DNA from: Clostridiaceae bacterium
GTDB lineage: Bacteria > Bacillota > Clostridia > TANB77 > CAG-508
DNA length: 64,000 nucleotides
Direction of reading: 5' to 3'
Assembly (NCBI GenBank): GCA_021771025.1
Contig: JAETPW010000003.1
Coordinates: 108,010 to 172,009 of the forward strand
Part shown: positions 26,126-57,054 of the stretch, in pieces
Layout: every line of letters begins with the position of its first letter
Position numbering within the stretch: position 1 is the first letter of the stretch
Translations under genes and position numbers: made by a program
The notes under the pieces: model-generated
What the model was told of the DNA's origin: nothing
What the model saw: only the letters and a program-made list of their open reading frames with translations
The model's database searches: none

Positions 26126-26247
26126 CCAAAAAAAGGAGAAAAGGAAACAAAGATAGGCAGAAAAAAAGGAGAAAAAAGAATAAACTAAAGATAAGAAGAA
26201 AAAGGAAGGAGGAATCTATGTTGGTAAAAAACGAACATAGAGGAAAT

Positions 26248-27093
26248 ATGAAATTAAACGAAAAATTACGAAAATTAAGAACCCAAAAACAATTAACCCA
26301 AGAAGCATTAGCAGAAAAACTAAATGTATCCAGACAAGCCATTACTAAGTGGGAAAAAGGAGAGGGAATACCAGACATAGAAAATATAACACAAATTAGT
26401 CGATTTTTTGGCATCACTATTGATGAATTGGTAAAAGAAGAACAAGAAATCAAGCCAAATGAAATCTATGCTTATACTTGGAAAAAAAGTTTGGCATTAA
26501 CTCATAGTAAGCGACTAGAGTTAACCGTAAAAAATATGAGGGAAATCACGTTAACAGGAAGTAAGGAAGATGCCATAGAAATAGAAATAAGCTCTAATGA
26601 AGTCGAACACCTAGAAGAAAGTATACGAATCAAAATTGATGACCCAAAAGATTTAAATAATCGCTATCAATTAAACATCAATAATCAAGAAAGCAAAAAA
26701 TCAGTAAATCTTAAAGTAACTATCCCACAAAAATTAATCGAGCACGTAGAAATAAAAACACACACGCAAAACATGATTTTAACAGAAATGAAATTAACTC
26801 ATTTAGAAGTTGATGGAGAAGTTCGTTATGTGAAAGCCATTCACACCAAAGGGTATATTGTTTTCAATAACGGCAGATCAGATATCGACCTTGAATTTGA
26901 CGAATTAGTAGAAAAATTAGACATTAATTTGATCAGTTCAAAAGCAACCTTAACCATACCAGAAACTAGTCGTTATGTGACATATAACAAAGGAAGATGG
27001 ACTACTATTGAAGGAAATCACGATACAGAAAAGGCAACAAATGAAATCGAATTAAATGGGCTAACCAGTAAACTAATGATCTTAACTAAATAG
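26248..27093 (+). CDS. XRE-family HTH protein with C-terminal beta-rich domain
   Basis: LTQEALAEKLNVSRQAITKWEKG..PD; alternative in-frame start at 26218. Confidence 0.85.
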   Translation: MKLNEKLRKLRTQKQLTQEALAEKLNVSRQAITKWEKGEGIPDIENITQISRFFGITIDELVKEEQEIKPNEIYAYTWKKSLALTHSKRLELTVKNMREITLTGSKEDAIEIEISSNEVEHLEESIRIKIDDPKDLNNRYQLNINNQESKKSVNLKVTIPQKLIEHVEIKTHTQNMILTEMKLTHLEVDGEVRYVKAIHTKGYIVFNNGRSDIDLEFDELVEKLDINLISSKATLTIPETSRYVTYNKGRWTTIEGNHDTEKATNEIELNGLTSKLMILTK

Positions 27094-27808
27094 AAAGTTA
27101 ATAGGGTACATTTTAGCGTAGTGCATAAAGCATTAAGCAAAAGAGTACTCTATCTTAAATTTTTATGATTTACAACTGATCCAAAATTTATTAACATTTT
27201 TTTGAATTCAGAATAAAAAAGATTTTCCACTTCAATAACCCTTTCTAAAATTGTTTTTTAGGCACTTCTTTTTTGCCATATTTTTTTCGTATTTATCCAA
27301 AATCTACTAAAAAACCAAATAGTAATAAACTTGAAATCTTATCTAGATAGGGGAGATAGAAATTATAGTTCAAGCCTTTTTCTATCTATATAGATAAATA
27401 AGAGTTAGATAGAATATACCATAGAAGAAAAGAATAATCTAGATTCTTAAAAAAAAGATTTACGTATTGCTAGATAAGAGGAGGGAAAAAAGAGATCTAA
27501 AAGAAATTCAGGGTAAAGATGATTGATGATAATAATAACCAAGATACAGAAAATTCATATAATAATTATTATAGCATATAGGAGGAAGACTCAAAAAAAT
27601 TATCATCCATTTAAGTTACGATATGTCTATAAAATTATTATGCTTTTAAACATACTTTGATTTTTATGTGGTTTATTTTATATAAATTGAATGAAGCTAT
27701 AGATAAATCATAAAAAAATCAACAAAAAAAGAGATGACGAAAGATAATCTTTATCAAATTGAGAGAGGAGGAATATGTTGGTGATAAAAGCTAACATATA
27801 CAAGAAAG

Positions 27809-54657: not shown

Positions 54658-55230
54658 ATGAACAAAACGAAACGAAAGATATTTGAAACATCGATGAAAT
54701 TATTTGCTGAAAAAGGCTATGATGCTACCAGTATTGAAGAAATTACCGCAACTGTAGGCGTAGCAAAGGGAACACTATATTATCATTTTTCTAGTAAAGA
54801 AGAAATTTTTAACTTTTTGGTTGAAGAAGGCATGAAATTATTACAAAATAGTATTGACATAAAAACGGCAAAGTTAACCAATTATATTGATAAATTAAAA
54901 GCAATCATTTTAATTGAAATTAAAATAGTGGTTAGGTATGAAGACCTAATTACGATATTACTAAGCCAACTTTATGGAAACGAAGCAAGAAATCAAAAAT
55001 GCCAAAAACATATTTATGAGTACATCAATACAATCGAAGAAATTGTCAAACAAGGAATACAAGCAAAAGAAATCAAAGCAGGAAATCCAAAAGTAATTGC
55101 TTCAGAAATCTATGGACTAATTTGTTCGAGTTTAGTATATAAATTAAGAAACGAAGAAGAAATGGACGTTATGAATTTATACCGAGAATTTGAAAATACA
55201 ATTATAGAAGGATTAACCATAAAAGCATAA
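54658..55230 (+). CDS. TetR/AcrR family regulator
   Basis: LFAEKGY..TSIEEI...GVAKGTLYYHFSSKEEI. Confidence 0.95.
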   Translation: MNKTKRKIFETSMKLFAEKGYDATSIEEITATVGVAKGTLYYHFSSKEEIFNFLVEEGMKLLQNSIDIKTAKLTNYIDKLKAIILIEIKIVVRYEDLITILLSQLYGNEARNQKCQKHIYEYINTIEEIVKQGIQAKEIKAGNPKVIASEIYGLICSSLVYKLRNEEEMDVMNLYREFENTIIEGLTIKA

Positions 55231-55338
55231 AATTTATACCCATTTAATATTCAATTCAAGTAAGTAGTTAGTCTTACTCAAAAAAATAAAAGGAGGAAAT
55301 ATGTTTAACTTACGAAAGTTAAGCATATGCTAGGAATC

Positions 55339-57054
55339 ATGAGAGAACCAATTTACCAAGCACTAAAATTTACCGATTTAAAAGATATGCTCAAAAAATC
55401 AGGAGAAATATATGGAGATAGACCAGCCTATATTTTTGGCACAGAAACACCGGGAGAATTCAAACAAATTACACACCGAGAATTTCGTGATCAAATTAAT
55501 GCTTTAGGAACCAAACTAATTGACATGGGATTAGCCGGAAAACGAATCGCTGTAATTGGTGAGAACCGTTATGAATGGGGTGTTAGTTATTTAGCTGTTG
55601 TCACAGGAACAGGAATCGTTGTTCCACTAGATAAAGCACTTCCTAATAACGAAATCGAAAGCCTTATTTTGCGTTCTGAAGTAGAAGCAATTTTCTATAG
55701 CCAAAAATATGATGAAATCATGAATGAGTTAAAAGAAAAAGGCAATACCAAAATCCAATATTTCATTTCAATGGATTTACAGCAAGAAGAAAAAGGAATA
55801 TATTCTTGGAAACAACTAATTAATCAAGGAGAAGAATTAATTGCCTCAGGAGATAAAAGATTTATAGAAGCTAAAATAAATCCACAAGAAATGAGTATTA
55901 TGCTATTTACCTCAGGAACAACAGCTATGTCAAAAGCAGTCATGTTGTCTCATCAAAATATTGTGAGCAATTTATATGACATTACATCAGTTATTAAAAT
56001 AGATGAAAACGATCGCTTTTTATCATTTTTACCATTACACCACACATTTGAATCAACCGTTGGCTTTTTATATCCTATTTCACGAGGAAGTTCAATTGCG
56101 TTTTGTGACGGGATTCGCCATATTGCTGAAAATATCAAAGATTACCGAATTACCGCGATGATATCTGTACCAATTCTTTTTGAAGGAATCTATAAAAAGG
56201 TCATGAAAGCCATCGATAAACAAGGAAAATTAGCTACCGTAAAAAAAGGAATGAAAATAAGTAATTTCTTAAGAAAAATAGGAATTGATATTCGTGCCAA
56301 ATTATTCAAAGACATTCACGAGAGTCTAGGAAAAGATTTACGCCTATTTGTAGCAGGGGGAGCAGCCATGGATCCAGAAACAGAAAAAGGATTCAACGAT
56401 TTAGGCTTTACCATGTACCAAGGTTATGGCTTAACAGAAACTTCACCAGTTATCGCAGCAGAAGATGACAAATTCCAAAAAATTGGCTCAATTGGAAAAG
56501 CATTTCCTAGTTTAGAGGTGAAAATCAATGAGCCAAATCAAGAAGGAATCGGGGAATTAATGGTAAAAGGACCAACAACCATGCTTGGTTACTACCAAAA
56601 TGATGAGGCAACAAAAGAAACAATAGAACCAGATGGCTGGCTACATACAGGAGACTTAGCTAAAATTGATCAAGAAGGATATATTTTTATTACGGGAAGA
56701 AAAAAATTCGTCATCGTTTTAAAAAATGGGAAAAATATTTACCCAGAAGAATTAGAAGCATTAATCAACAAAATTGAAGGAATTAAAGAAAGTTTTGTCT
56801 TTGGAAAAGAAGAAGCAGATGGAGATTACAAAATTTGGGTTAAGGTAGTTTACGACAAAGAAGTCATGCAAGAAATCTATGGGACACAAGACGAAAATGA
56901 AATAAGAGAAATATTATGGCAAGATATCAAGAAAATCAACAAAACCATGCCTGCGTACAAATACATTAGAGAAATGATTTTAACAGATCAAGAATTAATT
57001 AAAACAACAACGCAAAAAATCAAGAGGCACGAAGAGATGAAAACTATCGTGTAA
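55339..57054 (+). CDS. Long-chain fatty acid-CoA ligase (AMP-binding)
   Basis: FTSGTT..SKAVML, QGYGLTETSP, WLHTGDL, NGKNIYPEELE; alternative start at 55327. Confidence 0.93.
   Translation: MREPIYQALKFTDLKDMLKKSGEIYGDRPAYIFGTETPGEFKQITHREFRDQINALGTKLIDMGLAGKRIAVIGENRYEWGVSYLAVVTGTGIVVPLDKALPNNEIESLILRSEVEAIFYSQKYDEIMNELKEKGNTKIQYFISMDLQQEEKGIYSWKQLINQGEELIASGDKRFIEAKINPQEMSIMLFTSGTTAMSKAVMLSHQNIVSNLYDITSVIKIDENDRFLSFLPLHHTFESTVGFLYPISRGSSIAFCDGIRHIAENIKDYRITAMISVPILFEGIYKKVMKAIDKQGKLATVKKGMKISNFLRKIGIDIRAKLFKDIHESLGKDLRLFVAGGAAMDPETEKGFNDLGFTMYQGYGLTETSPVIAAEDDKFQKIGSIGKAFPSLEVKINEPNQEGIGELMVKGPTTMLGYYQNDEATKETIEPDGWLHTGDLAKIDQEGYIFITGRKKFVIVLKNGKNIYPEELEALINKIEGIKESFVFGKEEADGDYKIWVKVVYDKEVMQEIYGTQDENEIREILWQDIKKINKTMPAYKYIREMILTDQELIKTTTQKIKRHEEMKTIV

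Follow-up and report, generated by a model that had tools for sequence, protein, structure and literature searches.

In bacteriophage T4, the Shine-Dalgarno (SD) sequence and the start codon of genes 25 and 38 lie too far apart on the linear messenger, and an intervening hairpin gives them a working distance, shortened from 27 to 11 nt in gene 25 and from 22 to 5 nt in gene 38 (Nivinskas et al. 1999; Malys and Nivinskas 2009, as summarised in PMC3014915). Dispersed repeats that carry a ribosome-binding site (RBS) have been described in bacteria, among them REP2 of Neisseria (Parkhill 2000; Morelle 2003, reviewed in PMC3184786) and IR-A/IR-B of Borrelia, and MIRUs insert at start codons together with a coupling open reading frame (ORF) (Supply et al. 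1997, summarised in PMC12548453). Here we describe a repeat that places a hairpin between SD and start codon, found in a 64,000-nt stretch (the window; positions 108,010 to 172,009 of contig JAETPW010000003.1, assembly GCA_021771025.1) of a Clostridiaceae bacterium and across the rest of its genome. We judge its closest known counterparts to be REP2 and IR-A in architecture, MIRUs in lifestyle and the T4 split RBSs in mechanism, and our best reading is of a REP2/MIRU-like repeat with its own RBS that would act as a split RBS of the T4 gene 25/38 type. No description of a genome-wide repeat that splits RBSs by a hairpin was found in the open-access literature, supplements excluded.

The element is modular. 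Its 3' module comprises an extended SD, 0-2 nt, a hairpin of 8-13 bp (HP2; ATATGTTRGC..GCTAACATAT), about 10 nt (CTAGRAAAA) and the ATG; the hairpin is most often 27 nt long (range 15-30), and the linear SD-to-AUG distance is about 40 nt. HP2 is the 3' part of a longer repeat, which in its full form of about 135 nt has two further hairpins, HP0 (consensus ..GGATGAAAA-ATAA-TTTTCATCC) and HP1 (..TCTAGGTAAGC-TTTCAAA-GTTTACC), followed by a linker and SD (AATATGAAGAAAGGRGGAAT), HP2 and ATGCTAGRAAAA-ATG. Conservation increases from 5' to 3', the consensus being matched by 50-80% of copies in HP0 and HP1 and by 80-99% in the HP2 stem. As an nhmmer query, the 5' module alone found 40 loci, 31 of them adjoining HP2, so at least 31 copies carry it. 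Two 5' modules (C50:59895 and C52:39268, as contig:position) have no HP2, and in both the SD reaches the ATG at normal spacing; taken with a copy that no longer abuts a gene and whose stem has decayed (C31:24955), they mark HP2 as a separable unit. Both HP0 (GG-ATG-AAAA/TTTT-CAT-CC) and HP2 (AT-ATG-TT../..AA-CAT-AT) bury an ATG of the 5' arm against a CAT of the 3' arm. An ATG in the 3' arm was rejected as the true start, being in frame with the distal ATG at about 25 of 41 loci and often not an ATG. The element matches no Rfam family at the gathering threshold, and the copy ahead of an M15 peptidase gene in the window matched nothing.

The genome that contains the window (G000) is an assembly of 75 contigs, 2.04 Mb long with 32% GC. 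As the original prediction had proposed, a covariance model was built from its copies and used to scan the genome for their position relative to SD and AUG. At the census cut-off of E<=0.01 this model, R1, gave 86 matches scoring 35.6-82.8 bits; an nhmmer census gave 84 non-redundant loci, and a regular-expression scan, nhmmer and the covariance model all recover the same family. Sense orientation with a downstream ORF of at least 45 aa, the minimum counted, was seen for 81 of the 86 copies, in which the ATG lies 10-13 nt past the stem core (10 nt in 3 copies, 11 in 25, 12 in 47 and 13 in 6). This association is partly built in, because R1 includes SD and ATG as well as the hairpin. A less biased check, a scan by structure only, asked for no proximal SD together with an SD that runs straight into a hairpin of 8 bp or more, itself ending 6-16 nt before the start. 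Among 1746 gene starts it returned 40 split RBSs; 32 are members of the family, and several of the other eight resemble diverged members.

The genes behind the element are functionally unrelated. Among twenty proteins sampled were FtsK, a PcsB-like protein, RsmG, VanY, NERD, MazG, a penicillin-binding protein, OGG and an M18 peptidase, as well as HPRT, GH3, FeoA, UPRT, an acyl-CoA ligase, an Fe-S protein, a radical-SAM enzyme and RNase III. A co-directional gene lies upstream of 63 of 74 copies, and in about half of these cases the repeat makes up nearly the entire intercistronic gap of 90-120 nt. Five of the 86 copies are orphans with no gene behind them; two have decayed stems and three have kept theirs intact. 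In the only tandem pair seen, two full-length elements (C45:29404 and C45:29520) lie 116 nt apart within C45:29404-29585. The second begins where the start codon of the first would be expected, as if it had been inserted directly 5' of an ATG.

Where the gene behind an ordinary SD begins in this genome was established from 1208 ATG-start genes, of which 656 have a recognisable SD. Their spacing peaks at 6-10 nt with a mode of 8; 35 genes have 11 nt, 19 have 12 nt and only 13 of the 656 exceed 14 nt. In the element, 0-2 nt separate the SD from the stem in 66 of 80 copies, and the stem core ends 11-12 nt before the ATG in 72 of 81, which confirms the 10-12 nt between SD and AUG first given for the looped-out state. 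The likeness to T4 genes 25 and 38 drawn at the same time agrees in geometry, about 40 nt on the linear messenger becoming 10-12 nt once the stem is looped out. The median complementarity of the SD is 8 nt in the copies, 74% of which reach at least 8, and 6 nt in the 1685 other genes, of which 24% do, as scored against the canonical anti-SD sequence, the assembly containing no 16S 3' end. Long SDs in Escherichia coli reporters are less sensitive to spacer length (PMC3592434). Minimum-free-energy folds leave the SD and the real AUG unpaired in the ten copies folded, save for one or two peripheral SD pairs in three of them, and the only AUG buried is the proximal one, in the 5' arm of the stem. 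An RNA thermometer of the ROSE or fourU kind was rejected, since SD and real AUG are not sequestered in the folded copies.

The stem is maintained as a paired structure. In an alignment of 88 rows from G000, 89.7% of cells are paired, against 15-40% when partner columns are slid, and double changes occur in 10 of 11 pairs, in 52 cells against 16.3 +/- 2.9 in column shuffles (none of 500 reached 52); the alignment was fitted to the structure of the model, which favours pairing, and its rows are paralogues, whose cells are not independent events. The compensated variant ATAGG..CCTAT loses the proximal AUG and retains the pair, the codon reading AGG in 11 copies; other compensated stems are GTG..CAC and ATCTG..CAGAT, and stems are fully re-paired at C23:6859, C14:30755 and C52:52019. 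Within the inner nine pairs, non-Watson-Crick cells comprise 92 G.U, 14 A.C and 25 others, which argues that pairing is maintained on the mRNA-sense strand and bears out the G.U bias noticed in the first few copies; a strand-neutral scan gave 43 G.U against 6 A.C. Other species tell the same story. Their 62 distinct copies have 88.9% of cells paired and 47 double-change cells against 16.8 expected, and the core pairs are nearly invariant (U-A 62/62, G-C 60/62, U-A 57/62, G-C 56/62 and A-U 56/62). One congener, G164, has a compensated subfamily GATGTT..AACATC where G000 has TATGTT..AACATA, and HP0 also co-varies between species (GGTTGAA..TTCAACC against GGATGAAAA..TTTTCATCC).

Compared with the T4 sites, the element has a linear SD-to-AUG distance out of range, a maintained intervening hairpin and a looped-out distance within range, and it shares with the T4 gene 26-25 junction an intercistronic setting, as seen in the 63 copies behind a co-directional gene. 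The T4 sites outlined in PMC3014915 are single, orthologously inherited and different in their hairpins, whereas the element is one sequence family at about 86 unrelated genes, inserted independently in different species, with an extended SD and often a 5' module of two hairpins; moreover, function was shown by mutagenesis in T4 and is predicted here from the sequence. Like REP2 and IR-A as characterised in PMC3184786, which are dispersed intergenic repeats of 120-150 bp without terminal inverted repeats and with two 5' stem-loops, the element includes the RBS, abuts the ATG of unrelated genes and exists in tens of copies. REP2 belongs to another phylum, where homology of sequence would not be expected, and the likeness is one of architecture. 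REP2 is also reported there with a promoter, and its stem-loops lie near the 5' end and are not described there as splitting SD from ATG. Copies of the element are mostly operon-internal, and the one copy scanned for a promoter, that of the M15 gene, gave nothing convincing, with one weak sigma-70-like match against 1.6 expected by chance.

MIRUs, as summarised in PMC12548453, resemble the element in being short, mobile-looking repeats at the start codons of operon genes, equipped with a device that maintains translation of the gene downstream. That device is a small ORF coupled at -4 nt, and MIRUs form tandem arrays; in the element the internal ORF is not conserved, the device would be an SD with a looped-out hairpin, and there is the one tandem pair. 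Membership of the MIRU family was accordingly rejected on the absence of an upstream ORF (uORF) start in 17 of 86 copies, the scattered stops and the single pair. REP/REPIN-RAYT systems and the palindrome-associated elements derived from IS200/IS605 likewise consist of short hairpin repeats with strand-specific stem imperfections and without terminal inverted repeats or target duplications, and a Y1 homologue is present in this genome. REPs are found chiefly downstream of genes or in the gaps between convergent ones, in many cases as inverted pairs, and they flank a RAYT gene. The element differs in lying at start codons in sense and in never flanking the Y1 gene, and assignment to REP/REPIN with RAYT was rejected on these grounds, no copy being found in the 3.3 kb locus of that gene. 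Membership among miniature inverted-repeat transposable elements was rejected as well: three full-length copies have internal hairpins and no terminal inverted repeats, and no consistent flanking direct repeat or target duplication was found in alignments judged by eye.

The distribution of the element is narrow and patchy. At least one match was found in 11 of 24 congeneric species representatives in one survey and in 33 of 150 in a larger one, where scoring was limited to 34 candidates per genome. Congeners that have the element carry 1-5 copies each, except G147 with 16 and G164 with 18, and 16 genomes from four other families of the order gave no match. When 185,579 species representatives were searched with a strict DNA pattern, 12 assemblies gave 15 stretches between them, and all but two carry a title of uncultured Clostridia, Clostridiaceae or Clostridium. 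Judged by eye, the SD-hairpin-ATG context is present in 12 of these stretches, three of which have the full 5' module. The genus is deep: the nearest M15 orthologue is 55% identical, stands in different synteny and has leaders without the element, and a metagenome scan for closer relatives reached at most 52% identity with no R1 match in 326 kb.

Orthologous leaders, whose comparison had also been proposed, lack the element in most G000 orthologues. Every element-bearing gene of G147 and G164 with a tblastn orthologue in G000 was examined, and in none of 28 does the G000 orthologue have a copy at covariance-model level, one sub-threshold copy (C55:63125) apart; of the other G000 leaders in this set, the 14 inspected show a plain SD-N6-10-ATG. 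In other congeners, 1 of 14 element genes has the element in common with G000, and at a ROK kinase gene (C50:95557) the same place is taken by a hairpin whose sequence differs. Overall, 1-3 of 42 congener element genes share the element with their G000 orthologue. The plain SD-ATG leaders of the non-shared orthologues point to independent insertions between SD and ATG, which fits the suggestion of a mini-element that inserts at RBSs, the G000 leaders inspected having a plain SD-N8-ATG. Once inserted, copies persist. A gpmI copy common to three species has an altered loop and an intact stem, and strains about 1% diverged keep all four window copies between 26000 and 42500. This last comparison used contigs of four DNA runs over that interval. 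Three of them, with 73-74% of sampled words (about 1% divergence), run through all four copies without large indels, and the fourth (84%) covers only some; no empty insertion site was seen in the four runs over the interval, contig joints being due to other genomic copies of the repeat. What emerges is a history in which the element entered translation-initiation regions repeatedly and independently, went through an old burst in this lineage and was then stably inherited with its stem preserved.

The window itself contains the five copies, and a weaker sixth, in which the arrangement of SD, hairpin and ATG had first been noticed (Table 1). All six sites were confirmed on reading, each showing a purine-rich SD, 1-3 nt, a stem based on (A)TATGTTRR / YYRACATA(T), some 10 nt and the ATG of a long ORF, and with filters off they are the top six sense-strand matches of R1; antisense matches in the window are confined to partial echoes of the palindrome. 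The gene labels given at the outset agree with Pfam (HTH_3, Abhydrolase_3, RlmN, VanY for M15 and AMP-binding), the rlmN product matching both RlmN_N and Radical_SAM. Hairpins of the five main copies fold with -9.9 to -12.9 kcal/mol and z -3.4 to -6.2, leaving SD and start unpaired, and the proximal AUG is out of frame in four of the five as previously stated, the XRE gene being the in-frame exception. The strict pattern ATGTTRRY-N5-14-RYYRACAT occurs at two window loci (four strand matches) against 0.02 expected from shuffles. The M15 copy occupies the whole gap between rlmN and the M15 gene and has no terminator; upstream of the XRE copy no 5' module is recognisable, and the weak copy precedes an ORF of 210 aa without a Pfam family. 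Weak matches of the model at 39003 and 3306 were rejected as an ordinary RBS and a different repeat, respectively.

Table 1. Copies of the element in the window, and the alternative upstream module found elsewhere in the genome. R1 match gives position and E value; folds are in kcal/mol.
Feature	Position	Strand	SD	Hairpins and other parts	Proximal ATG	Start ATG	R1 match	Fold
XRE (HTH_3) copy	26204..26250	+	GGAAGGAGG, 26204-26212	hairpin 26215-26241	26218, in frame	26248	26196, E 0.017	-10.8, z -6.2
Esterase (Abhydrolase_3) copy	27745..27811	+	GGAGG, 27767-27771	degenerate HP1-like GATAATCTTTATC upstream; hairpin 27773-27799	27775	27809	27755, E 3e-9	
rlmN copy	40438..40493	+	40447-40453	linker AATATGCTGAAAGGGG; hairpin 40457-40481 with three G.U pairs		40491	40438, E 1e-6	
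M15 (VanY) copy, full length	41515..41636	+	GGGGG, 41591-41595	HP0-like ~41526-41548; HP1 GGTAAGC..GTTTACC 41558-41578			41579, E 9e-12	-12.9
M15 copy, 3' part		+		HP2 41597-41623	41599	41634		
AMP-binding acyl-CoA ligase copy	55290..55341	+	GGAGG, 55292-55296	13-bp hairpin 55299-55328; inner stem co-varied (TTTAACTT/AAGTTAAG)		55339	55281, E 8e-6	-12.6
Weak, decayed copy	61542..61587	+	AGAGAGGA	6-bp hairpin 61554-61571; spacer CTAGAAAA		61585	61535, E 0.009	-5.1, z -1.8
Alternative upstream module	C64:33600-33680, C8:29170-29250, C55:53590-53650 and seven more (outside the window)			AGGTTTATAGGTAA.ACCT..AAAAACCTAAAT..ACAAGGAGAAAT				

On balance, we think it somewhat more likely than not that the element is an intergenic repeat, modular and amplified in this lineage, and that its 3' module provides an entire translation-initiation region in split form. 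We propose a model where the hairpin folds on the mRNA and loops out, so that an SD-to-AUG distance of about 40 nt, which would be non-functional, becomes one of 10-12 nt. The same fold would hide the useless proximal AUG, and the unusually long SD would offset the long effective spacing. Where the unit is inserted between SD and AUG, or replaces the native RBS, the gene would become dependent on the fold, and the stem may then be under purifying selection, since without it that gene would be left with no working RBS. Such dependence might in turn allow the element to spread at little cost, like MIRUs and the REP2 repeats of Neisseria. Signs of purifying selection after insertion are seen in the gpmI stem kept in three species and in the decay of some gene-less copies. 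Translation of about one gene in 20 in this genome would thus probably depend on a hairpin looping out. As for the original prediction, its dispersed, sequence-conserved translation-initiation element is supported, and so is constraint of the stem on the mRNA-sense strand.

Several observations weigh against this reading. The hairpin is dispensable for the SD of the two 5' modules that lack HP2, and three of the five orphan copies keep intact stems that serve no gene. The association with gene starts is, as noted, partly a product of the model, and a loose, strand-neutral pattern, which is less biased, matched 88 loci, 51 of them at gene starts; the matches elsewhere were mostly not real hairpins. 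Of the 92 G.U cells, 55 come from two columns (38 and 17) and may have been inherited from a founder copy, and G.U pairing on the sense strand is equally compatible with a top-strand single-stranded DNA (ssDNA) hairpin used in mobility. The sequence of the stem, beyond its pairing, is conserved within and between species, which structural selection alone would not require; this conservation is in part search bias, the model having come from G000 copies. Finally, the 10-12 nt left after looping out fall in the upper tail of native spacing, and the RBSs may be weak ones, short of the optimum.

The alternative we take most seriously, though we consider it unlikely, is that the element moves selfishly as an ssDNA hairpin after the fashion of IS200/IS605, REP or PATE elements, its hairpin serving a transposase as a one-strand recognition structure, its target resembling an SD and its effect on translation being merely tolerated. 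Lineage-specific, non-orthologous insertions at a fixed position 0-2 nt after the SD and in fixed orientation would suit such an element, as would the lack of terminal inverted repeats, a stem conserved beyond pairing, G.T pairs that ssDNA hairpins can tolerate, the tandem copy at C45 and the Y1_Tnp (IS200/RAYT-like) gene. That gene is a single ORF of 259 aa (C55:39475-40254; L141:1441-2220) between PSP1-like and membrane-protein genes; the best R1 match in its locus has an E of 0.23, and no element copy adjoins it that would mark a parent transposon, other transposase families not having been searched. The wide range of similarity among copies and the fixation of four window copies at about 1% divergence show nothing that would indicate present activity. 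An HP2-only insertion has a single hairpin where IS200/IS605 ends need two, a DNA target alone does not explain a constant ATG spacer and an extended SD, the gpmI stems have outlasted speciation, and stems have decayed in the non-RBS copy C31:24955 and in two orphans. Quite improbable, in our view, is an operator for a trans-acting RNA-binding protein or small RNA that reads the ATGTTRGC/GCTAACAT hairpin beside the SD and represses or activates about 80 genes together at the level of translation, much like the operators of MS2 coat protein or T4 RegA or the co-regulation linked to REP2. The conserved stem sequence of the 62 other-species copies and the location of the hairpin at the ribosome landing site speak for it, and REP2 copies mark co-regulated genes in Neisseria (PMC3184786). 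The loop is variable, however, the downstream genes share no functional theme, no candidate for the factor was identified, conservation across species is inflated by a search model that bears the sequence, and compensated stems of other sequence occupy the same position at C23:6859, C14:30755, C52:52019, C68:16780 and C50:95557.

The original prediction had also entertained a switch between a decoy uORF and the real start, and here the census went against it. Under such a leader-peptide device, translation would begin at the proximal AUG 3 nt past the SD with the hairpin melted, stop at the UAG and reinitiate 5-6 nt downstream. The consensus does read ATG TTG GCT TTG AAA GCT AAC ATA TGC TAG, a stop lies 7-8 nt ahead of the start in 26 copies, and most copies follow a co-directional gene. 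But the start codon is missing in 17 of 86 copies (AGG in 11, AAG in 2, GGG in 2, ACG in 1 and CTG in 1), mostly through the ATAGG..CCTAT variant; in the 65 copies that have it the stops are scattered from -34 to +54, only 26 ending at the conserved TAG; the conservation of CTAG extends to copies where it is out of frame with the proximal AUG; and the 1-3 nt between SD and that AUG fall far under the native 6-10 nt. We regard the device as very unlikely. Least credible of all is a DNA operator, that is, a palindromic transcription-factor site overlapping 5' leaders. Its appeal lies in a core that is a near-perfect inverted repeat, ATGTTAGC-N5-7-GCTAACAT, and a double-stranded site would predict neither the strand asymmetry of 92 G.U to 14 A.C nor compensatory double changes that preserve pairing and not sequence. 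Furthermore, the arm spacing varies (core hairpins of 20-28 nt in regular-expression matches, total hairpins of 15-30 nt), and position is tied to SD and ATG, not to promoters.

In place of the usual 5' module, ten HP2 copies in front of unrelated genes carry an alternative upstream module (Table 1), which is also present in G147 and has the shape of a preQ1-I H-type pseudoknot. Identity with the preQ1-I riboswitch was rejected: the Rfam PreQ1 model scores 17-25 bits (best 24.6 and 22.6) against a threshold of 39, and the downstream genes are unrelated to queuosine. Other repeats came to light nearby. A separate hairpin repeat built on TAGGGAAAAAAAGGGGACGCCCTTTTTTTCCCTA lies in the window at 3320-3345, 3400-3425, 38660-38690, 38975-39000 and 40225-40255, and its family gives rise to contigs of very high depth and to many joints in the strain runs. 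An identical 24-nt hairpin, TGTTAGGATAATGAGAGACTAACA, is found at C5:41-64, C44:38-61, C23:24583-24606 and C38:9662-9685, three of which are contig ends, and it probably belongs to a multi-copy element that did not assemble. In the window, Rfam's gathering threshold is reached only by a 6S RNA at 30565-30759 (+), with 79 bits, and a tRNA at 58198-58271 (-).

Mechanical ORF calls begin the XRE, M15 and acyl-CoA ligase genes at in-frame ATGs of the hairpin arms (26218, 41622 and 55327), so that three of the six window copies are mis-started in the ORF list. Automatic annotation of this genome probably mis-starts many element-bearing genes by 4-10 codons, and start callers in general would place the starts of such genes at the proximal or arm ATG.

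Beyond the split translation-initiation region that we favour, it may be speculated, as a possibility we rate as rather unlikely, that the element is a mobile unit which targets the SD-AUG spacer or the start codon and whose hairpin doubles as a dock for a trans-acting factor. Some 4-5% of genes would then belong to one post-transcriptional regulon, with the split RBS as an on/off device dependent on folding or binding. Split RBSs are known from a couple of phage genes, and this organism offers about 80 natural replicates, graded in stem strength, loop length and compensation, as a data set on how the 30S subunit accommodates a hairpin between SD and AUG. Beside coupling of the MIRU type and cassettes of the REP2 type, the element would represent a third route by which repeats colonise start codons without killing the genes behind them.

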